Below, piece by piece: positions 17,445 through 64,000 of a DNA stretch of 64,000 nucleotides. The position numbers and the translations under genes were made by a program. The notes below the pieces were generated by a model. It made no database searches, was not told where the DNA came from, and saw nothing but the letters and a program-made list of their open reading frames with translations. Positions within the stretch are counted from its first letter, which is position 1, and each line of letters starts with the position of its first letter. The DNA is from Mayamaea pseudoterrestris (taxonomy: Eukaryota), in the NCBI GenBank assembly GCA_027923505.1, contig BROI01000007.1:372001-436000 (forward strand), read 5' to 3'.

Positions 17445-19775
17445 ATGAGCGGCAAGAGTCGAGGCTACGCCGCTGCGTTCCAGCAACTCGACTCCATAGC
17501 CGAGACTTATCAGATGGACAATCCCACGCAGCATTATCAGCAACCGCAGCAGCAGACAGGAGTGGGCAATCAGGCATTTTTGGAGCTTGGTTACCATGCG
17601 GCTGACGGATATCCAATTGGAAATGGCATGCAACACAATCATAACATGGTCGGCATGCCGCAACACCAGCAAACCCATCATGCATTGTTAATGCCCAATC
17701 ATCATTTTCAAGCAAACAATAACGATAATATGAACAATATGAATAGCGCCTATCAATTGATGTTTCAGAACCAGCAGGAGCAGCAAGGAGTTGCTCAAGT
17801 CATGCCATACTACGGGGACGTTGGCAGCAGCAATTATCGCGAAACAGCAATTAACAATAATAATGCTCAAGCCTTTGCCGGCTTTGATCCTCTTCCCATG
17901 CAGTTTGGAGCCCATCAACGGACGTCATCATGGGACGAATTCATGTCGCTCAACTCGGTGCTCTTTCAGCCCGAACCAATCTTGTCCGTGCCGCCCAATA
18001 TGGTTTCGGCGCAGCAATCGTATTCGAGTCATTCCACCAACAACTCGGCGAACCAGCACCAACTTATACACCAGGAGGATGAATCATGGCTGTCAGCACT
18101 GACGATTGAAGTATCTGGTCTCTCCATGGAGCCAATGCTTGGAACGGATGTTGTGCAGCGCTGCCAAGCGTCCATGGACGATGTCACTTGCCGGTATATT
18201 CCATGCGTTGACTTTTTGGTGCAATGTCAGCAAGAGTTACGCAAGGGACAGCGACTTTGCGCCAACAAGGCGCAAGAGTTTTTCCTAACTTTCATACAAC
18301 CGCTGCCTCGAGTCTTTTACGGAAAGAATCAGTTCAACATGTCGGCGGAAAGCTTGCAGTTGGCCATGGATGGTCTGCATCATCTCGTGAGAGACGCCAA
18401 GGGCGTACAGCGACTTGGTAGCGAAGCAGTCAAAAATCATTTTTTAGGAGGAATGAAGGATGGTGAATCGTGGGGACTGCGCAAGTGGCTGAGTAAACAC
18501 GGAAATGCACTTCCAATTTGTACAAACTTGGAATGCATATTGACCGCCTTGCGAAAGCTAGACAAGTCGGCGGAATCAACGCGAAAGCTCGCGACTATTC
18601 TACGACCCATGGCACATAAAACGCTTCAAAAGTTACAAACTGGAGTTCCCGAGTCGTATCAGGAGCAGTCGTCGGCGCATCCGTACCTTCCGTTTTTCCA
18701 TCGACTGGAGGCGGCGCTACGAAGCATGAGTCAGTTTGAGCCGGAGAAGGATGATGTCATTTGTCTTGACGATAGCGATGACGAAGACGAGGCAGCAGTG
18801 GTTTCATGTCAACCACAGCCTATCATAAAAAGACGGAGAGTGGATGTTGTTCTGGAGGAAGTTGGAGACGACGAAGTGAAAAAGCCTGCCGCCAAATCGC
18901 AGACACAAATGCAGGCTGTCGCGCAACATCAAATGACTGGGAAGCAAACATATGATGGCGATGGGAGCTCCTCGGGTGAATCAGAAGACGATAGCGTCGT
19001 TGAAATTGTCAATGCGTTTGCGACAGCGTCCGCGCAGACGGCTAGCGATCGGGACTCGGATCGGGAGTGGTCAGTTGCAACATCGTTAGCCGAGCGCGAC
19101 CACAATTCGTCTGGCCCCGTTCTTTGGCCTCTGCCTGTTGTTGGCAAGCAAATTTCATTGGCCGCGGCAGAAATGGCTGCCAACATTGATCGAGTTGCTG
19201 AATACTTTGATTCTGGTCAGCAAGCAGTGGTTCGTCCCATTACGGCACCGCATGGGACATTTTGGGAAGGACATCGGTACGCTCGCGTTCTCAGGTTGTT
19301 TAGTCGTATATTGCGTCAGCCCGAGGCGGTTGTCTTTATCGAACGCGTCGACGAAGATGCTTTGATTCAAGCAGGTCATCCGCCCTTTTCGCATGTCATT
19401 AAGCACCCGCTCTCGCTTCGTGATATTGCAGCGAGTTTGATCTGGAATGTTGATGCCAATGGGCACGTGCCTTGTGGTAAAGATGGAGAGCTTCCAGTTT
19501 GGGATTTGCGCAAGTGGAACATGTGGAAAGGCATGGATTTGCTGCAAGCTATAGATCTGGTGTTTTTAAATTCGCTTGCCTACGGGAGACGCATTGGCAC
19601 CGACAAGAAGTCAAACCACCGATCATCAACGAACAAGCTTCGAAAGTTATTGTGGGACGAAATCAATCGAGTGATACAAGCTGGCGTTGGCAACGATGTA
19701 GTCAGGAGGAAGTCCATTACCCCCACACGGCGCTCGGAGTCTAGTGGCTTCGTCGTCTACAAAATTCAAGAGTAA
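17445..19775 (+). CDS. Hypothetical nuclear protein: Q/N-rich N-terminus and a divergent bromodomain-like C-terminus (an upstream exon near 17286 is possible)
   Basis: 776-aa ORF; PEAVVFIERVD...PFSHVIKHPLSL...IDLVFLNSLAY resembles the bromodomain ZA loop and helix B; SIM-like DDVICLDD. Confidence 0.7.
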   Translation: MSGKSRGYAAAFQQLDSIAETYQMDNPTQHYQQPQQQTGVGNQAFLELGYHAADGYPIGNGMQHNHNMVGMPQHQQTHHALLMPNHHFQANNNDNMNNMNSAYQLMFQNQQEQQGVAQVMPYYGDVGSSNYRETAINNNNAQAFAGFDPLPMQFGAHQRTSSWDEFMSLNSVLFQPEPILSVPPNMVSAQQSYSSHSTNNSANQHQLIHQEDESWLSALTIEVSGLSMEPMLGTDVVQRCQASMDDVTCRYIPCVDFLVQCQQELRKGQRLCANKAQEFFLTFIQPLPRVFYGKNQFNMSAESLQLAMDGLHHLVRDAKGVQRLGSEAVKNHFLGGMKDGESWGLRKWLSKHGNALPICTNLECILTALRKLDKSAESTRKLATILRPMAHKTLQKLQTGVPESYQEQSSAHPYLPFFHRLEAALRSMSQFEPEKDDVICLDDSDDEDEAAVVSCQPQPIIKRRRVDVVLEEVGDDEVKKPAAKSQTQMQAVAQHQMTGKQTYDGDGSSSGESEDDSVVEIVNAFATASAQTASDRDSDREWSVATSLAERDHNSSGPVLWPLPVVGKQISLAAAEMAANIDRVAEYFDSGQQAVVRPITAPHGTFWEGHRYARVLRLFSRILRQPEAVVFIERVDEDALIQAGHPPFSHVIKHPLSLRDIAASLIWNVDANGHVPCGKDGELPVWDLRKWNMWKGMDLLQAIDLVFLNSLAYGRRIGTDKKSNHRSSTNKLRKLLWDEINRVIQAGVGNDVVRRKSITPTRRSESSGFVVYKIQE

Positions 19776-36143: not shown

Positions 36144-37112
36144 ATGTCGAATCAGTTTCGCGAAGCCTTCCAGCGCATGGCCAAACAGGCGCAAAAGGCC
36201 GGTGGAAGCGCCGGTGGCGGGGGTGCCGGAGGTCCCAACAAGGCGGCCGCCGCCGCGGCGCGGTCCGTCTTTGCACTGGGCGGCGCGGCCGCCTTGGGCT
36301 ATGGCGCCTACAATAGCGTCTACACGGTGCAGGGAGGTCATCGTGCCGTTGTGTTCAATCGCTTCGTTGGTATGAAGGAGAGTGTCTACGGTGAAGGTTT
36401 GAACTTTAACATTCCATGGGTGGAGCGCCCGATTGTGTACGACATTCGCACCCGACCGGTGAATCTGCAAACTCTGACGGGAAGCAAGGATTTGCAAATG
36501 GTAACGCTCGCGATTCGTGTCTTGCACAAACCCAATGTGAATAACTTGGTCTGGATTTATCAGTTTTTGGGATTGAACTATGACGAACGTGTCTTGCCAA
36601 GCATTATGAACGAGTGTGCCAAAGCAGTCGTTGCTCGATACAATGCGAGCGAGCTCTTGACCAAGCGTGAGCAAGTCAGCAAGGAGATTAGCATGGAACT
36701 TACCAAGCGGGCGCACAATTTCAATATCATTTTGGAGGATGTCGCCATTACGCACTTGGCATTTTCGCCGGAGTATGCTCGCGCTGTGGAGGCTAAGCAA
36801 GTGGCACAGCAAGATGCGAGCCGAGCCAAGTACATTGTATTGGGAGCGCAGCAGGAGAAACTTACGATTATTACCAAGGCGCGCGGAGAAGCCGAGTCTG
36901 CGTCGCTGATTGGTAACGCCGTCCGCAAGAATCCTGGATTCTTGAAGCTGCGTCGGATTGATGCGGCGCGCGACATTGCGGATATTGTCGCTGGATCTGG
37001 CAACAAGGTGTACTTGAACGCCGATACTTTGTTGCTGAACTTGCTCGGAGAAGCGGATGATAAGTTTGAAAAGGGTATTGGATCCAGAGGTAGTGGAAGC
37101 CGATACTTTTAA
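36144..37112 (+). CDS. PHB2: Prohibitin 2
   Basis: V.GGHRAVVFNR, PIVYDIRTRP, TGSKDLQMV, YDERVLPSI, AVEAKQVAQQ. Confidence 0.96.
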   Translation: MSNQFREAFQRMAKQAQKAGGSAGGGGAGGPNKAAAAAARSVFALGGAAALGYGAYNSVYTVQGGHRAVVFNRFVGMKESVYGEGLNFNIPWVERPIVYDIRTRPVNLQTLTGSKDLQMVTLAIRVLHKPNVNNLVWIYQFLGLNYDERVLPSIMNECAKAVVARYNASELLTKREQVSKEISMELTKRAHNFNIILEDVAITHLAFSPEYARAVEAKQVAQQDASRAKYIVLGAQQEKLTIITKARGEAESASLIGNAVRKNPGFLKLRRIDAARDIADIVAGSGNKVYLNADTLLLNLLGEADDKFEKGIGSRGSGSRYF

Positions 37113-37868
37113 ATGCTTGTATATGCGATGGTTGATGCAGACTGTACGAGACGAGTTGTACGATGGTTTGGCCTGAAAGAAACAAGGCAAAAGCATTCTA
37201 TAGGTATTAGAATTGAGTAACTTCACGAGCAAAAGCTAGTACACTCCGATTAGGTTGTAAACCGTTGCAGGTCTGGACCTTTCGAGCTCAGATGGCTGCA
37301 GACCCCTTTGCTTCAAAGCCATCGACACGTCGACATGTTGCTTGACAAATCATATCTCTGCTGGCTGAATCTTATTCTTAACACTCCAGCTGCTACTACT
37401 ACGATAGGTTGGGTTTCTTCATGGGTACCTGTATGAGCCAGTTTGCCAAGTGATTCGAAATGCAGGCCCAATCCCCTGCGTGACAATTGGTGCCCAGTCA
37501 GAGGGCTTCTGACACAGAATGGAACACTAAACTTATAGATTTTGTTGAAATTGTAGCGTGTAATTGCGTACAGTAATTGCATGAGCATAGAGCATAACCT
37601 TCTTGTAGTTTGCAAGCCGCCGCATAGCTAAACCTCTCTCTGTCGAAAGCGGCAAGCAAACGATCACACGACTCTTGTACAACTACGTGGACGCGACGCT
37701 CGCTTTGGCCCATAACTTACCAAACGGTTCGCAGATATGAAAGGATTGCGCGTACAGTACTTTTATATCAGATCACTTTGTCGTGCAAAAGGCTGAATCG
37801 AACAGCTAGGCCGTCAAGCCTCAACGGAACTGAAGTCCGTCCCCACCACCAGGCAGGTTCATTTGCAC

Positions 37869-37888: not shown

Positions 37889-38130
37889 AGAGAGAGGAAG
37901 CAGGAGTAATCCGCGTTGTGTTAAAAGGCATAACTTTGCTACAATGGCAGCGCCCTAGCTCAATGGCTCGTGTCATCACCGTAATCGGCTCTGGACGCTG
38001 GAACGCCTTGCGGCGCCGGTTTCTCAACCCTTGCATTCGCGGAATTTCCCCAAGAAGCTAAATGTCCTCGGCCTCGAGAGGCGGGACGCTCCTCGTACGC
38101 CATGGTGAAAGTGTTCTCTGTCCTCCCTCC
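37889..38130 (-). ncRNA. Nuclear RNase P-type RNA (RNase P/MRP family), ~240 nt
   Basis: Minus strand: CR-I GGGAAATTCCGCG pairs with CR-V ACACAACGCGGATTAC (P4); P1 ggagggaggacag/ctgcttcctctct; P2 actttcaccatggc/gccattgtagcaaagt; P3 gaggagc..gtcc..gcctc-tc-gaggc..ggac..gcttctt; P8 ggtt-GAGA-aacc; P9 cgcc-GCAA-ggcg; T7 run just downstream. Confidence 0.75.
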
Positions 38131-38300
38131 AAGATTTGTGGGAGCGAGTTGCGGTTTCATCAGAAACGGATGGTTCTCCGACCGAGTCTCACCAGTTCTC
38201 ACTGCGACACGAGCTGACTTTTCCGATGAGTCATCATCGGTTCGTCGAGCCGCTATGAATATGTTGCCCATCTATCAATGCTGTCCCTGTTGATAGCATC

Positions 38301-40208
38301 ATGATACGTAAAGGAGAGTGCGTAAAGACATTCGAGTACTTAAGAATCTTTCCATTGTTCATTGAGAATGACGATGCATCATGGCGCAACTTGCCTCAAT
38401 GGGAAACCGTGTCGGAACAAATGCCAGCAACTTCTTGCCGGCCATTGACAAAATTTCAAGCCATGCTTGGCCAAGAGCTTGCCAAATCAAGTCCAGACTT
38501 TGTGCTGGTTGCTTATTTGCAGATCTGCATGGAAAATGATACAAATCTTCTGCCAGAGTTGTTAAAGTCTGTCGACAATGATAAGCAATCGACACCTAAT
38601 CGACTTGATCTCGAAAGGGACGAATCGCTGCACAGTCTCAATCGAACAAGTCGCCACTGGAAGCAATGTCGTATCCGCGATCAAATGACGATATACCAAT
38701 GGACCCGCCTGTATCTATGGATCTCTGGACGAATCCATGTCATTTCCGTCGACCATCCAATGCATCTTTACGCCTCACAATGCCTACCTCGGCTTGATGC
38801 GAATGAACGCCAGCAAGTTATCAAGCAACTAGATTTGACTCCTACGACATCAATGCTCGGAATCATGAAGCAAATTCAAGACCGACATCCGCCCGTTCGT
38901 TTGTTTGCTGTCCTACTGGATAAACCATGTTTCCTTCGACACTCGTGCATTGCAAATGCGACGTTGGAATGGCAAATAAATCAGATTGACGCAAACAAGG
39001 CAGGCACGATTTCCTTGACAGCCTTGTATGACATTGAGTTTCTCAACGATTTAACAATCAACTACATTGCCAATAAAATGGATCATGACGAGGTCAATGA
39101 TTACGAAGATCGCCTGCGAGCATTGGAGGCGCGAACAGGATCGTCCTGCGACTGCCCCAAGTGTCGGTACCAAATGATGAATGAATTTGCCACCTTGGAC
39201 TTGGCGGATCGACTCGCACTGGCGCGCTACTACTTGACGAATGGCTCGCTTCAAGTCGCCAAGGAGCTGTATCAAAATGTGCTTGAAATTGAACCAGATT
39301 ATATGGATGCGTGGCATGCGCTGGGTGCCATTGAGTTGAGTCAAAAGAATTTCCTAGAGGCACAGCGAACGTGGGCGCAGGCTATAGAAAGATATCCGAA
39401 GCAGTGCTCACAGCATTCTGGTATGGCTCTGCAGGCCGACAAGCTGCGAGCCTATTGCTATCTGGACGATTGCAACTCGTCGTCGCGGTTTGCGGTAACG
39501 AATGCCGGTGCAAACAAATCACCAACAATATCAACATCTTTTCAAATGTTGCTGCCCGGCGTATATGTCAGTCGCATGCTCGACAAGAGCATATGCCAGC
39601 AAATTTTGGCATGGTCTCAATGTAACGGCACCATGTGGACGCAGAACCGACATTATGCAGTTCCAACATACGATATACCCGTCCACACTGTTCCTCTCTT
39701 GTTGAAGTGGTTTCAAACTTGGTTTATTCACGATATGCGTTCGTTGCTGGCTCGTCAGTTTGGTACTTCCGTGAATTACTTTGTCCACGATGCCTTTGTG
39801 GTCAAGTATGAAGCTTCGTCAACATCCAACTATCTGCCACTCCATATGGACGAGTCAACTCACTCCTTGGTGGTGGCACTCAATGATCCCAACGAGTATA
39901 TTGGGGGAGGCACCTACTTTGCGGAGACTGATACGACGCAGCGAGCGGCCTTGGGCGAGGTGCTAAGCTTTCGCGGCGACCAAGTGCTGCACGGCGGTGA
40001 AGCTGTAATAAAAGGAACAAGGTACATACTGGCCGTCTTTTTGTATCATGACGATGATGGAAACGAGCTACTAGTCAACGCTAATAGCTCCGCTAAACCT
40101 ACGGGTGGCTCAATGAAAAGAGAGCGGAACGAGACGAGAATTGGAAATGTCATTCGAGAGTCCAAGGCGCAGAAGGTTGACTTTAGTTTTGGCTTTACGC
40201 CAGAATAA
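38301..40208 (+). CDS. Fusion of SET-like, TPR and 2OG-Fe(II) oxygenase (prolyl/lysyl hydroxylase-like) domains
   Basis: FLRHSCIANA..ALYDI..LTINYI..CDCPKC (SET/post-SET); YQNVLEIEPDYMDAWHALG (TPR); AFVVKY..LPLHMD..GGGTYF..HGG..V..GTRYILAVF. Confidence 0.8.
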   Translation: MIRKGECVKTFEYLRIFPLFIENDDASWRNLPQWETVSEQMPATSCRPLTKFQAMLGQELAKSSPDFVLVAYLQICMENDTNLLPELLKSVDNDKQSTPNRLDLERDESLHSLNRTSRHWKQCRIRDQMTIYQWTRLYLWISGRIHVISVDHPMHLYASQCLPRLDANERQQVIKQLDLTPTTSMLGIMKQIQDRHPPVRLFAVLLDKPCFLRHSCIANATLEWQINQIDANKAGTISLTALYDIEFLNDLTINYIANKMDHDEVNDYEDRLRALEARTGSSCDCPKCRYQMMNEFATLDLADRLALARYYLTNGSLQVAKELYQNVLEIEPDYMDAWHALGAIELSQKNFLEAQRTWAQAIERYPKQCSQHSGMALQADKLRAYCYLDDCNSSSRFAVTNAGANKSPTISTSFQMLLPGVYVSRMLDKSICQQILAWSQCNGTMWTQNRHYAVPTYDIPVHTVPLLLKWFQTWFIHDMRSLLARQFGTSVNYFVHDAFVVKYEASSTSNYLPLHMDESTHSLVVALNDPNEYIGGGTYFAETDTTQRAALGEVLSFRGDQVLHGGEAVIKGTRYILAVFLYHDDDGNELLVNANSSAKPTGGSMKRERNETRIGNVIRESKAQKVDFSFGFTPE

Positions 40209-57969: not shown

Positions 57970-60900
57970 ATGGGACGATCGCCCAACAAGAAAAGCAAAG
58001 AGGCCAAGTCCTCTGCCGCCGCCGCAGCTGCCGAAGCTGAGGCCGCCGCCAACGTCGACGCTGCAGCAAACCAAGACGACAACTACGACGACAAGGAGCC
58101 CGAGCCAGATGCTCCTCCTTTATCCGCTCGCAACTCGAGCAAGGCCTTTACTCCAATCAAACCAGTCCATGGTGGACTCTTCACTACGCCCAAGGAAATT
58201 ATTCCCTACACTGGCGGCAAACCCGAGCGCAGTTTCGCCGAGTTTCCCCAAACGACCGACATACCAATGGAAGGCTGCCGCCGTCCAAGCGACCCCAAGG
58301 ATTGGAAGAGTCGCACCAAAGGGCTTGATACTAAACTCTCCACAACAACAAACCTGTTTACGTGGGAGAAGGAATTTTGGCGACACCTCGTTCGCCACGG
58401 ATTGGACACCACCCCCTACATCGCGAAAAACGAGACCACCCTCGCTCCTATTGTCACTCAGTGTGGCAGATTCCCTACAGTCGAAGCAGTCCAAGCTGCT
58501 GTAGATGAAGTTTCCCCCAAATGGGATCCTTATGATCGTCGCAATGATGGCGACGCGGTCGAATTCCTGTTGAACTCTCTCAGTCAAGAGATTCGACAGC
58601 GCTTGGAGGTGTACACTCCAACAGACAAGCCCGAGTGCTTCGCCGTTACTTACTGGCGTGTGATTGCTATGGTACAGCAACACAATCATGCTCTTCATCA
58701 GCGCCTCGAGAGGGAGGCGTTGGCCATCATGCCGCATCAGTTTCCTGGTCAAAACATCCACCAGTATTGCGCCAGCGTCCACAAGCTCATCTCGCAGCTT
58801 CAGAACGCCCAGGTTTACAACCATCAAACAACAGAGCAGCTCCTCCGCAACATTCGAACAGCAGGAGGAACCTACAGTACAGACAATCCAGCCGCCACGG
58901 AATTCATGTTGAGTCTCTACGCATTCGAGCAAGCGTACGGGACGGCGGTGACGGAAAGCGCTGAAATGGGAGCAGCAGAACGAGACATCTACATGCTCAA
59001 GGCCAAAGCAGCTCCTCAAGACTTGTTCAAAGCAGCGGAGACCAAGTATGATGCTCTTATAGCTGCAAATGCTTGGTGGCCAGCCCGCCGCCCTCAGGAC
59101 CGTCGCGCCCCGGCCGCACACGTCCTCCAAGTCAACACGAACCACTCGAACGCCTCTCGCTCTGACGGAGCTCAAGACAGGATCTGTTTCAACTGTGGAA
59201 AGAAAGGCCACATCTCGCCTCAGTGCACTGAACCGAAAAGGGACGGTAGCAATCGCTCAGCTCCAAACTCGCCTAGAAACATGCCCAGTCACAGTCGCAC
59301 CTCGAGCGGTCGGAATTCCTCTCGTCGTGGACCAAGTACTGGATCCTACGGGCCGCGAAGCACAGGCGCCAATCAAAACGGCCGCCCTCGCAACAACAAC
59401 AACAACAATCGTCGATCCACAAGCAATGGATCCTCTTCTGTCCCCAAGCTCTGGTGTGGCCATTGCAACCGCTGGGGGACTCATGACACGGCTGCTCATA
59501 ACAACGAGCGAACCAAAGTCCCAAATCCATCGCAGCCGCCGACTTTGAACCCGCGGGCGAATCTCGCCAATGTGTTTGACTCGCATGACTGGGTGATGCC
59601 TAGCGCCTATTACGCAAAGCTTCCATCATTCAATGAGCGCTGGATTCCACCCGCAACAGTTGAGGCTCTTCAATCGGTTTGTTTGAACACCAGCGAGGAA
59701 GAGCAAAACCTCGCCGCCTGCGTTCTGCCTCCGGATCTTTCAATGTCGCCATGGCATCTCGACTTGGAGGATGGAGGCGACTCCTTCAGTTCTTTCCTCA
59801 AGGAAGACGCTTATCCATCGCCAGTATACGTCAAGGAAGCTCATTTGTCTCCTCGGTATGAGCTTTCGCCTCGCCGTTTGTTTGACGAGGCAAGTGCTGC
59901 GGTTGATACGCGCCCAGTTAGCGACAGTCTCCATGACTACTGGTTTGAAGGGATGTCTTGCCCTGGCGCTCCTTCTCCAGTGCCTTCCACTCCGCCTTTA
60001 TCACCTAATCAACCAGATTTAAGGCTTCCGCGCATGCTTGATTTGATCGAGGACATTGATGGCAAAATCAAGTTCCATTTCGAGTGCTTTGGCTCTGGCC
60101 CCTGGCCGCTCAATCCTCCTCGCTCGATTCTGGTCAAACGCCTTCGCGCCATCAAGGGCGCAGGCTCTAAAGGCAGTCGCAGCAATCAAAGCAACCACAG
60201 CTCTGCTGGTAACAATAGCGGAGGCAGTGACGACGACAGCAGCCGCAGCAGCAGCAACAGCAGCAGCAGTGTCGACTCAAGTGACACAAGCAGTCTGTCG
60301 AATGATATCAGTCTGGATAATGTCAGTACAGCATCTCCGCCTCGCAAGAAGCCATTTGCTAGCGGTAAACAAGCTGCTCTGGCCGCTGCTCTGTTCATGG
60401 CAAAGGGAGCAGACGCTTTCGGCGCTCCTGCGACAAGCTCTAGTCCTACCATGACTCAAGTCTTTCGCATGTTGCCGTCATTCTTGCAGCCAACGCCTGC
60501 TCAAAGCGCTGCTGCAGTCTTTCCTTTCAATCTCCTCCCATCTTTCCTTTGGTTTGAAGTGGGGGAGTCGGTGGTATTCGCCTTTCTCCTTTGGTCGCTG
60601 ACGCTGGTATTGGCGTGTGCCGCCACTTGGTATTACATGAAGGCTCGCCGCCTTTCGCGCCGCCTTCAACACCACTTGCGCCATTGCCATTGCTACTTGG
60701 TTTTGCATGCCAATGGGCGCTTTGGTCGTCCTGTAGACTCACCTGCTGTTGATTGCGCGTGGCGCTCTGCTCGACGCGCCATTGTTTGGCGAGTCTTTCA
60801 CCTCATTGCTTGGTTTAATACGCTCTGGCTTCGCTGGTTGCGTCGCCAAGTTGCCTACTGGACTGCCATTGGGGGAGAGACTACTCATTATCGCCGTGTT

Positions 60901-63900
60901 GGTGGTTCAAGATTTTGTGTTGCTCGCCCTGATGGTCCTCAACCCGTGCCCGTTCGCCAACCTGCTCGCCGACGCCGTCGCCGTCGCCGCAACAAGAAGG
61001 CAAAAGCCAAGGCTGAACAAGCAGCTCCTTCTTCTCCTTCTTCTCCTTTGGATCGCATTCATGGCATCCTCAAGATCAAAGCTCCGCTGTCAACCCTGAC
61101 GCCTCGCTCGCACGTGCACTTGCGCGAGATGGACAATTTCCGTGGCCATCTGCTCGCAAACGATGCCTTTACCGTCTCGCAAGTTGATGAAGACATCAAC
61201 AAGGTACATCAGTATCTAATGGGCTTTCTGGATATGGCTCCTTGCCTTCAAACAGGCGCTCGCATTCCTCATCGCTTGAGTCGCCTTCGCCATTCCAAGT
61301 ACGAGGTGAATCACGAACTGAGTCCCGATTCGCCCATTTCGCCCATTCAAGGCTACCTTTCCTCCAACACGACAACGCCTAGTCCTCAACGCTCTCGCAC
61401 ATCTTCTCCACCAAGGATGCGCTCTGCTAAAGTTAAAGTGGAAGCGTTGGGTCGGCAACAGTTCCAGTCGCCGCGGCGTTGCAAGAATGGCCAGCCCAGC
61501 ATGCAACCTAGCGAGTTGCCAATGCCCGTCATGCCGACTTCAACCACTCCAGTTGCTAGTCAAGTGGAACCAGTCGTTCCTAGTCCTGTTATCTCTGGAA
61601 TCATGGATCCTTATGTCTTTCTGTTGACTCTAACGCCACAAGAGACTGCAGCTCTGCCTGCTTGGATTCGATCAACAATGCGCGCTATCCGCCGCAACGG
61701 CCACGCATCCTCTTTTGGAGACGACAAATCCTCCAAGGAACGAGTCTTTCCAGTCATTTGGGATACTGGCGCAAGTATATCTATCTCATACGAGCGCTCT
61801 GACTTTGTCGGTCCCATTGAACCGTCTCCAAACAACGATCGCGTCAGTGGTCTTACAGATGGAGCCAAGATTGAGGGGAGAGGCTGTGTCGCCTGGACTT
61901 TCCTTGATAATGGAGGCATGCTCAGAACATTAAAGCTGCCTGCCTACTACATTCCGGCTGCTACAGTCCGCTTGCTAAGTATAAGCAGCGTTCTGCAACA
62001 ACACTATGAGGAATTCATCTATGGCGACGAACGAGCCATCTTCCTGAGTGGATCCGTTTCAACCACTCACTCCGACGGATCCATAACCAACAATGGAATA
62101 GAAGTTCTGGTGGATCCTGCATCTAACTTGCCGACCGGGTATGCCTACGATACCTCGTCTCCTTCTGCATCTGCCTATCGGGCAAGCGAGTTGTCGGCGC
62201 CGCCTGGATCGCCACCAGGCCCCGAGCCAGCTCCAAATGCGTCAAATGCACCTCCAGGCAATACTGGAAGGCATCAAAATGGCAATCTCGGTGGATCTTG
62301 TCAAACAAGGGCGCATGGTTTCTTGCCTGGGTCCGCACAAGGCCGAGGTCCCAGCTCGAATTCACGTCAATTGCCAAGTGGCCCGCAAGTCTACTCGGTT
62401 GCTATGCCTTCTCCATTGCCGCCTCCGGTGGTAGCTTCCAATAATGCTAATATAACGGAAGCAGAGAAGGAACTTTTGCGGTGGCATTACCGTCTTGGCC
62501 ATCTCGCCAAGGCGAGGATCCAGTTCCTGATGAAGGGAGGCATCCTAGCTCAATCAGAGGGACAACGGCGCCTACACGCCGCAAGCTCGAGGCTGGTTAA
62601 TCCTCCTCTTTGCGCTGCCTGCCAGTATGCTAAACAAAGGCTGCGTTCTGCTCCCGGGAACAAGTCAACTGCGGTCAAGGATCGAGTTGGAGCGTTGCGC
62701 CGCAACGACGTGTTTCCAGGGCAACAAGTTAGCGTTGACCATTTCATCTGCTCAACCAAAGGCAGACTCTTCTCCTCTCGAGGCAAGACTCAAGAGGCTG
62801 ATCTTTACTGCGGTGGTTGCATCTTTGTGGATCACGCCTCTGGCTACGTCTTCATCTACTTCCAGCGGCATTTAACCACCGACGAGACCCTTGCCGCAAA
62901 GGAGGCATTCGAGCTATCCTGCCGCGACTATGGAGTCATTCCTCAAGAGTATCTTTCTGACAATGGACGTGCCTTTGCGTCTAAAGCATTTGCTCAGCAT
63001 CTTGCAGTGTTCTCCCAGATCAACAAGTTTGCCGGCGTCGGCGCCCACCATCACAATGGGATCGCCGAGCGCTCCATCCAAACGATCATGGCAATCACTC
63101 GCGCTATGATGCTACACGCCTCTATACACTGGCCTGAGCTATCTGATCTATCGCTCTGGCCAATGGCGTGCCAATATGCCGCGTTCCTGTGGAACAAGAT
63201 GCCCGACCTGCACTCAGGGATCAGTCCACACGACTTGTTTACGCGCACTCGATGGCCTCACTCGCGCTTCCATGACCTTCATGTATGGGGATGCCCAGTC
63301 TATATACTGGAGAAGCGTCTCTCTGATGGTCAGAAGCTGCCGCGCTGGTCGCCTCGCTCCAAGCGTTGCGTCTTTGTCGGTATGAGTGACGCGCACGCAA
63401 GCTCCGTTCCTCTGGTCCTCAATCCAGAAACAGGAGCCATTACACCTCAGTTTCATGTGGTCTTTGACGACTACTTTAGCACGGTATCATCTGATCCTGG
63501 CAGCTTGCCAGATTTCGAGACGGACGAGTGGCGCAAACTCTTTGGCGACAGCTCCTATCAGTATATCCCCATTGACGAGGATGGAGCCGACCAAGAGCCT
63601 TCAACCAGCGCGCCTCCTATTCCTGAAGCTGCTATTCAGCAAAAGGATCGAGTGGAAGCCGCTTTTGAAACCAATCGTCCATCCCATCCATTGCCTGGCG
63701 AGCCGGCCCCAAGCGAGCCAACCGGCGACCCATTGCATGATCCCGCCGACCCGACCGACGATGGTTCTGGTCTCGCAAGGGCGCAGGATGACAGTTCTCC
63801 GCCTGCAAGGGCGCCAAGTCCAACTTTTGATACCACCGCTTCGGCCAATTCTGCAGACTCGTCTTCAGCTAGCGCACCTACACACCATAACGCTGTGACA

Positions 63901-64000
63901 CCAAGTCCATCAAGCTCGCAAATGGACACACCAAGACGATCCCTTCGTTCTAATATGGGCCAACTGCCTCAGCGGCTTACCTACATTAGTCCTGGGCATC
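57970..64000 (+). CDS. Gag-Pol polyprotein, open to the window end (>2000 codons)
   Basis: One frame contains CFNCGKKGHISPQC, WCGHCNRWGTHDTAAH, protease IWDTGASIS, integrase LLRWHYRLGH..CAACQYAK, VSVDHF, SDNG and NGIAER; its absence from the ORF track is consistent with no stop before 64000. Confidence 0.92.
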   Translation, partial: MGRSPNKKSKEAKSSAAAAAAEAEAAANVDAAANQDDNYDDKEPEPDAPPLSARNSSKAFTPIKPVHGGLFTTPKEIIPYTGGKPERSFAEFPQTTDIPMEGCRRPSDPKDWKSRTKGLDTKLSTTTNLFTWEKEFWRHLVRHGLDTTPYIAKNETTLAPIVTQCGRFPTVEAVQAAVDEVSPKWDPYDRRNDGDAVEFLLNSLSQEIRQRLEVYTPTDKPECFAVTYWRVIAMVQQHNHALHQRLEREALAIMPHQFPGQNIHQYCASVHKLISQLQNAQVYNHQTTEQLLRNIRTAGGTYSTDNPAATEFMLSLYAFEQAYGTAVTESAEMGAAERDIYMLKAKAAPQDLFKAAETKYDALIAANAWWPARRPQDRRAPAAHVLQVNTNHSNASRSDGAQDRICFNCGKKGHISPQCTEPKRDGSNRSAPNSPRNMPSHSRTSSGRNSSRRGPSTGSYGPRSTGANQNGRPRNNNNNNRRSTSNGSSSVPKLWCGHCNRWGTHDTAAHNNERTKVPNPSQPPTLNPRANLANVFDSHDWVMPSAYYAKLPSFNERWIPPATVEALQSVCLNTSEEEQNLAACVLPPDLSMSPWHLDLEDGGDSFSSFLKEDAYPSPVYVKEAHLSPRYELSPRRLFDEASAAVDTRPVSDSLHDYWFEGMSCPGAPSPVPSTPPLSPNQPDLRLPRMLDLIEDIDGKIKFHFECFGSGPWPLNPPRSILVKRLRAIKGAGSKGSRSNQSNHSSAGNNSGGSDDDSSRSSSNSSSSVDSSDTSSLSNDISLDNVSTASPPRKKPFASGKQAALAAALFMAKGADAFGAPATSSSPTMTQVFRMLPSFLQPTPAQSAAAVFPFNLLPSFLWFEVGESVVFAFLLWSLTLVLACAATWYYMKARRLSRRLQHHLRHCHCYLVLHANGRFGRPVDSPAVDCAWRSARRAIVWRVFHLIAWFNTLWLRWLRRQVAYWTAIGGETTHYRRVGGSRFCVARPDGPQPVPVRQPARRRRRRRRNKKAKAKAEQAAPSSPSSPLDRIHGILKIKAPLSTLTPRSHVHLREMDNFRGHLLANDAFTVSQVDEDINKVHQYLMGFLDMAPCLQTGARIPHRLSRLRHSKYEVNHELSPDSPISPIQGYLSSNTTTPSPQRSRTSSPPRMRSAKVKVEALGRQQFQSPRRCKNGQPSMQPSELPMPVMPTSTTPVASQVEPVVPSPVISGIMDPYVFLLTLTPQETAALPAWIRSTMRAIRRNGHASSFGDDKSSKERVFPVIWDTGASISISYERSDFVGPIEPSPNNDRVSGLTDGAKIEGRGCVAWTFLDNGGMLRTLKLPAYYIPAATVRLLSISSVLQQHYEEFIYGDERAIFLSGSVSTTHSDGSITNNGIEVLVDPASNLPTGYAYDTSSPSASAYRASELSAPPGSPPGPEPAPNASNAPPGNTGRHQNGNLGGSCQTRAHGFLPGSAQGRGPSSNSRQLPSGPQVYSVAMPSPLPPPVVASNNANITEAEKELLRWHYRLGHLAKARIQFLMKGGILAQSEGQRRLHAASSRLVNPPLCAACQYAKQRLRSAPGNKSTAVKDRVGALRRNDVFPGQQVSVDHFICSTKGRLFSSRGKTQEADLYCGGCIFVDHASGYVFIYFQRHLTTDETLAAKEAFELSCRDYGVIPQEYLSDNGRAFASKAFAQHLAVFSQINKFAGVGAHHHNGIAERSIQTIMAITRAMMLHASIHWPELSDLSLWPMACQYAAFLWNKMPDLHSGISPHDLFTRTRWPHSRFHDLHVWGCPVYILEKRLSDGQKLPRWSPRSKRCVFVGMSDAHASSVPLVLNPETGAITPQFHVVFDDYFSTVSSDPGSLPDFETDEWRKLFGDSSYQYIPIDEDGADQEPSTSAPPIPEAAIQQKDRVEAAFETNRPSHPLPGEPAPSEPTGDPLHDPADPTDDGSGLARAQDDSSPPARAPSPTFDTTASANSADSSSASAPTHHNAVTPSPSSSQMDTPRRSLRSNMGQLPQRLTYISPGH

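Follow-up and report, generated by a model that had tools for sequence, protein, structure and literature searches.

Introduction

RNase MRP RNA (RF00030; human RMRP, yeast NME1, Phytophthora) and nuclear RNase P RNA (RF00009) belong to one clan and share the core of P1-P4, CR-I, CR-IV and CR-V. They differ at a few diagnostic places. CR-IV has six nucleotides of the form A-G-N-N-A-N in MRP RNA and eight in RNase P RNA (PMC13184271). A P5 immediately adjacent to CR-I is specific to MRP RNA, whereas P RNA has P7 several nucleotides after CR-I and uses the T-loops of CR-II/III to hold the tRNA elbow (PMC13184271). The motif AnAGUnA has been described 0-3 nt before the 3' strand of P2 (PMC1796607). 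A GARAR or GARA loop is the hallmark of MRP P8 (PMC13184271, PMC1796607), and the GARA tetraloop variant appears in PMC1796607.

P or MRP RNAs have been found in all major groups, but P RNA was not found in plants and heterokonts (PMC1636426). According to the same survey, heterokonts have no detectable Rpp21, while Pop1, Pop4, Pop5, Rpp1 and Rpp25 are present, and a Phytophthora MRP RNA is mentioned (PMC1636426). Land plants, stramenopiles and trypanosomes seem to have exchanged their RNP-type RNase P for PRORP (PMC10941002), and plants still use a Pop1/Pop4-dependent MRP for rRNA (PMC3858429). An earlier, sequence-only reading of the DNA studied here had remarked that nuclear P RNA was hard to find in stramenopiles and that these were held to rely on protein-only PRORP, in agreement with PMC1636426 and PMC10941002. 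Because of this, an MRP RNA rather than a P RNA is expected in a diatom. For the genome of Thalassiosira rotula, the Infernal/Rfam survey in PMC11842555 has a single RNase_MRP entry and none for nuclear RNase P; the annotation table of that survey was the only description of a diatom MRP RNA found in the literature searched.

In this study, we describe a locus that is very probably the nuclear gene for the RNase MRP RNA subunit of a diatom. It would resemble the plant nuclear arrangement, in which the RNase MRP RNP is kept and RNase P is replaced by PRORP; here the organism is a diatom.

Detection of a P/MRP-Class RNA Gene

The window, that is, the whole 64-kb stretch of DNA that was analysed, was scanned with Rfam covariance models. 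Sequence inspection, Rfam cmscan and a check of base pairs together defined a 242-nt RNA gene of the P/MRP class on the minus strand, 38130-37889, counted from P1 to P1. All features of the RNA are given below on this strand. RNase_MRP (RF00030) was the best Rfam model, with 28.2 bits for a match at 38128-37892 that covered all 266 model positions (1-266). Its E was 3.8e-6 on 901 bases and 2.7e-4 over the whole window. The match was obtained in the E-value mode of Rfam. Since 28.2 bits does not reach the gathering score of 50, the locus is missing from the gathering-mode scan of the window, which gave only a tRNA-Sec gene. An automatic annotation that applies the gathering cut-offs would overlook this gene in the same way.

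At least two overlapping matches of other P/MRP clan models (E<=10, scores below 28.2 bits) were suppressed at the locus by clan competition, and P/MRP-clan matches occurred nowhere else in the window. The minimum free energy (MFE) of the locus was unremarkable (z -0.86). The MFE fold nevertheless contained P1, P3, P4, P8, P9 and a P10-like helix, and all pairs of the model that we built by hand were found canonical by script. These results indicate that the feature is non-random and belongs to the P/MRP clan, with MRP as the best-fitting model.

Core Helices and 3' Tail

P1 is formed by 38130-38118 with 37903-37889 and has 13 canonical base pairs, also seen in the MFE fold and the cmscan alignment. 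Its 5' strand forms 10 bp with 37889-37898 and 3 bp with 37901-37903, leaving C37900 and U37899 bulged. P3 (38095-38051) is a helix-loop-helix in the MFE fold and passed the pair check. The proximal helix joins 38095-38088 with 38058-38051 and is followed by the internal loop AUUUA at 38063-38059; the distal helix joins 38087-38079 with 38074-38064 and is capped by the terminal loop CUCG at 38078-38075.

CR-I, the 5' strand of P4, is GGGAAAUUCCGCG at 38050-38038, and CR-V, the 3' strand, is ACACAACGCGGAUUAC at 37921-37906; both were placed by sequence, cmscan and the pair check. The P4 pseudoknot comprises 8 bp, in which 38046-45 and 38043-38 pair with 37915-37908 and U38044 is bulged. P8 (38029-38018) has 4 bp and a GAGA loop at 38025-38022, and A38021 follows the loop. 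P9 (38017-38002) has 6 bp and a GCAA loop at 38011-38008, supported by cmscan, the MFE fold and the pair check. Downstream of P1, the 3' tail GGGGUUUGUCACC with its T7 run occupies 37888-37869 (T7 at 37875-37869). The run is a presumed RNA polymerase III terminator, judged from its letters. The elements that the sequence-only reading had reported on the minus strand, namely P1-P3, the P4 strands, P8 with GAGA, P9 with GCAA, the CCG-AUUA-CGG hairpin and T7, were all present where it had placed them.

CR-IV, P5 and P2

It had been held that CR-IV was not clearly identifiable. We found that it can be placed by hand on AAAGUUAU at 37937-37930, with the six-nucleotide core AGUUAU at 37935-37930. 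This placement was chosen because the stretch fits AnAGUnA, the model consensus AuAGUUAuGC and the six-nucleotide A-G-N-N-A-N form. The core is of the MRP type and lies one base ahead of the 3' strand of P2; GCCUUUU comes next. The eight-nucleotide P-type CR-IV (A G N N N N A N) does not fit, as position 7 counted from A37935 and G37934 is G37929.

The 5' strand of P5, AAUG at 38037-38034, pairs with CAUU at 37946-37943 according to the pair check. This 4-bp helix follows P4 with no base in between. Together with P8, P9 and the 38000/37948 helix it forms a four-way junction, of which it is the closing stem. A P7 placed downstream of CR-I was not seen; the stem that closes the junction begins directly after P4.

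P2 is the weakest part of the model, and its 5' strand (38117-38098) is a tentative hand inference from canonical pairs, with no covariation. AGAA at 38117-38114 and GGCG at 38101-38098 would pair with UGCCUUUU at 37930-37923, giving 7-8 bp interrupted by 12 bulged nucleotides at 38113-38102. The hand model has no hairpin between P2 and CR-V, so that P19 is absent.

The cmscan alignment differs from the hand model in this region. It puts CR-IV on CGAGCCAUU (37970-62) and contains a P19 hairpin that the hand model lacks. We rejected its placement of P2, CR-IV and P19, in which three of the six P2 pairs are non-canonical. Its CR-IV was also set aside because the consensus of the Rfam model itself is matched better by the AAAGUUAUGCC stretch, which is moreover located in the part kept by divergent relatives. 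Another candidate helix, 38107-38104 with 37980-37977, was rejected because the relative from library X12 changes 37977 and 37978 without compensation.

Specificity Domain

The specificity domain spans 38000-37948 and has only 53 nt, made up of a P10-like helix, a P12-like hairpin and a second hairpin. The P10-like helix joins 38000-37993 with 37955-37948 and is part of the MFE fold. The P12-like hairpin, CCG-AUUA-CGG at 37988-37979, is flanked by CAGA (37993-90) and GUGAUGA (37979-73), and the second mini-hairpin lies at 37968-37957. The sequence-only reading had set the P12-like hairpin between CAGAG and TGACAC. When the 66-nt stretch 37940-38005 was searched alone with Rfam, it gave no P/MRP-clan match at E<=10, which is a weak test, with no explicit CR-II/III consensus. 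No evidence of a CR-II/III tRNA anchor was seen, and the 53 nt leave little room for one.

CAGA and GUGAUGA (37973-37993, minus strand) are able to form tandem G.A pairs, and the latter is a C-box-like motif. The GUGAUGA stretch gave weak matches of the C/D-box snoRNA type, one to sR28 (E 0.046) and another at E 2.7. We considered whether the P12-like hairpin forms a canonical K-turn and found this unsupported: the three-nucleotide bulge is missing, and only the tandem G.A pairs and the C-box-like motif are there. The compact domain is a small curiosity worth comparing across diatom genomes.

Relatives in Environmental RNA Libraries

A run search returned 14 runs, among them five environmental RNA libraries that contained a small fraction of the words. 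Four of these (X7, X9, X10 and X12), from four studies, were used at 80% likeness. All four libraries contained contigs of 193-228 nt that were 90-95% alike to the locus and fell on 37901-38123 only; those of X9 and X10 lay wholly inside the RNA gene. The tRNA-Sec gene behind it and both flanks had no cover, which carries no information on their expression, since the libraries are of other species. The contigs come from relatives and not from this organism, and they show that such an RNA is present, not its ends or its strand.

In near-full-length contigs of all four runs, 37995-38059, which holds CR-I, the 5' strand of P5, P8 and P9, was identical. Both P5 strands and CR-IV were invariant in these contigs, so that covariation is not seen there. 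Variable positions numbered 4 of the 106 paired and 16 of the 71 unpaired positions (n=20; Fisher p 1.6e-4). Substitutions and indels clustered in the hairpin loops at 37982-84 and 37960-64, in the P3 internal loop at 38060-62 and in the P3 terminal loop at 38075-78. Both hairpin loops of the specificity domain were thus hypervariable with indels, and within P3 the variation was confined to its two loops. The UUU of the P2 bulge was missing in one relative (X12).

All four changes at paired positions keep pairing. C37994:G37954 is replaced by U:A in X9, X10 and X12, a compensatory change, while X7 keeps C:G; G37998:C37950 becomes G:U in three runs, and C37993:G37955 becomes U:G in X7. Only one change is double-sided. 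Covariation was read by hand from a difference table of four closely related contigs, not from an alignment. The model was partly refined after the data from the relatives had been seen, but the covarying helix had been predicted beforehand by the MFE fold. A deeper, more divergent contig (record 3 of X12) matched only 37910-37941, which includes CR-IV, the 3' strand of P2 and part of CR-V, and 38041-38059 in CR-I. The first of these segments was conserved apart from 2 differences at unlisted positions.

A CR-I/P8/P9 pattern was also searched for in metagenomes and yielded 27 loci. None had a blastn match to the locus, and 0/27 had a P/MRP Rfam match at E<=0.01; these are chance matches. The close relatives (90-95%) occur in soil, saline-spring and freshwater metatranscriptomes, which suggests that the lineage is common outside the sea.

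RNase MRP RNA Versus RNase P RNA

The RNA shares with known RNase MRP RNAs P1-P3, the P4 formed by CR-I and CR-V, and a six-nucleotide CR-IV within AnAGUnA before the 3' P2 strand. It also shares the P5 abutting CR-I, a GARA(R) loop in P8, a GNRA-type loop in P9, the apparent lack of CR-II/III and a variable specificity domain. Its size is comparable, with about 240 nt at the locus and a model length of 266. It differs from them in its score of 28.2 bits (gathering 50), in the lack of P19 between P2 and CR-V, in a P2 with a 12-nt bulge and in a P8 tetraloop instead of the canonical pentaloop. A further difference is the reduced specificity domain, which in 53 nt holds two mini-hairpins and the tandem G.A / C-box-like GUGAUGA. 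Nuclear RNase P RNA has, beyond the shared clan and core, a similar layout of P8, P9 and P10-12, but its eight-nucleotide CR-IV, P7 and CR-II/III T-loops, as described in PMC13184271, were not seen at the locus.

The sequence-only reading had proposed an RNase P-type RNA gene in a diatom. It had correctly recognized a genuine RNA gene of the P/MRP class, but the choice of P over MRP does not hold in view of the best model, the six-nucleotide CR-IV, P5 and the GARA loop. The comparison of Rfam models, one half of the condition under which that reading would have given up its own proposal, favored RNase_MRP at 28.2 bits, and RNaseP_nuc was not the best model. Its argument that CR-I and CR-V look like those of fungal P carries no weight because the letters of P4 covary freely. 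A minimal nuclear RNase P RNA that processes the 5' ends of pre-tRNAs would account for the clan and for the at least two other clan models matching at E<=10. It would also account for the P-like order in the specificity domain, which runs helix, CAGAG, small hairpin, UGAUGACAC, helix. Against this stand the better score of RNase_MRP, the six rather than eight nucleotides of CR-IV, and the failure of the specificity domain alone to match the P family. P5 abutting CR-I without a downstream P7 and the GARA loop of P8 speak in the same direction (PMC13184271, PMC1796607). So does the phylogenetic background: PMC1636426 reports neither P RNA nor Rpp21 found in heterokonts, and stramenopiles have PRORP (PMC10941002, PMC3858429). 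If a diatom had a nuclear RNase P RNA, this would conflict with the reliance of stramenopiles on PRORP; we consider such an RNA very unlikely here.

A further alternative is that the locus encodes the sole P/MRP RNA of the cell, a ribozyme with both P and MRP roles that works beside PRORP. It is the only clan match in the window, and a plant study, as described in PMC3858429, reported that a Pop1 immunoprecipitate contained MRP RNA together with RNase P activity. The authors of PMC3858429 ascribe that result to co-precipitated PRORP. The locus itself shows no CR-II/III tRNA anchor and has an MRP-type CR-IV, and for the human RNAs both activities suffered when CR-IV was exchanged between them (PMC13184271). 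We regard this dual role as the least likely of the alternatives. A non-functional or redundant copy of MRP RNA, with the working gene elsewhere in the genome, might be suspected from the sub-threshold Rfam score, the weak P2 and the lack of P19. All core motifs are intact, however, and the gene has its T7 run. The expressed RNAs of relatives are identical to it from CR-I through P9, and changes elsewhere preserve pairing, so that a pseudogene also seems very improbable, slightly more so than a P RNA and slightly less so than the dual ribozyme.

The RNase MRP RNA proposed here is ordinary, previously unannotated and not surprising. It fits the complement expected of a diatom and supports the PRORP picture, in which the remaining RNP is MRP. 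The re-annotated structure could serve as the seed of a covariance model specific to diatoms; its features of note are the CR-IV at 37937-37930, the P5 beside P4, the absence of P19 and the 53-nt specificity domain.

Proposed Role

The transcript would be an RNA of about 242 nt with a short U-ended tail, its exact ends being predicted. It folds into the P/MRP catalytic core, composed of P1-P2-P3, the P4 pseudoknot of CR-I and CR-V, and a U-shaped six-nucleotide CR-IV. P5, P8, P9 and the P10-like helix meet in a four-way junction, which carries a very small specificity domain, apparently without tRNA-binding CR-II/III loops. By analogy with the family, the RNA probably assembles with the shared Pop/Rpp proteins, and the RNP would cleave the single-stranded pre-rRNA spacer (ITS1) and not pre-tRNA. 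The 5' ends of tRNAs in this lineage would be made by protein-only PRORP. Transcription by RNA polymerase III is suggested by the T7 run.

A tRNA-Sec Gene Directly Downstream

A tRNA-Sec gene with the anticodon UCA lies at 37868-37783 on the minus strand (RF01852, 67.8 bits against a gathering score of 47), and ARAGORN also calls it tRNA-SeC. The sequence-only reading had missed it. It shares its strand with the MRP RNA gene and begins one base past the T7 run, so that any promoter elements upstream of it would fall within the MRP RNA gene. Runs of four or more T were absent for about 540 nt downstream of tRNA-Sec (37240-37782, minus strand), where only T3 runs occur. Such a lack is not usually seen at a polymerase III tRNA gene that stands alone, and it fits the view that tRNA-Sec is not an ordinary gene of that kind.

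The MRP RNA and tRNA-Sec genes might form one expression unit, with either a promoter inside the MRP gene or one shared precursor; we consider this rather unlikely. In the shared-precursor version, protein-only RNase P would cut the 5' end of the tRNA and thereby create the U-rich 3' end of the RNA of its sister enzyme. The head-to-tail tRNA-Sec neighbor is a small curiosity worth a look in other diatom genomes.

At the other end of the gene, TCCCACAAATC is found at 38133-38143 (minus strand), directly upstream of the first base of the RNA. It presumably resembles the upstream sequence element of plant snRNA genes, but lies much closer to the start. It was not enriched in the window, with 15 matches at two or fewer mismatches against 20.4 expected.

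Flanking Genes and Other Features of the Window

Two plus-strand genes flank the RNA gene, which lies in the 1.2-kb spacer that separates them. One of them, at 36144-37112, encodes a prohibitin (PHB2), with a Band_7 domain and homologues named prohibitin 2; its nearest named homologues are from raphid pennate diatoms, with 76-80% identity. The other, at 38301-40208, contains a 635-aa ORF with TPR repeats. The sequence-only reading had named the flanks PHB2 and a SET-TPR-oxygenase gene. PHB2 and the TPR part are borne out by the domains found. For SET the match was only sub-threshold, with E 0.0013 and 19.6 bits where the cut-off is 22.4, and no oxygenase domain was found in the 635-aa ORF. Among the 22 ORFs of at least 200 aa in the window, Pfam detected no PRORP or Pop/Rpp domain.

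Two other features of the window were observed. A weak snoU13-like match (RF01210, 24.7 bits against a gathering score of 46, E 0.52) lies at 17615-17726 on the minus strand. On the plus strand, a 2010-aa open frame at 57970-63999 continues past the end of the window; it contains GAG-pre-integrase and retroviral SH3-like domains and is probably a retrotransposon polyprotein.
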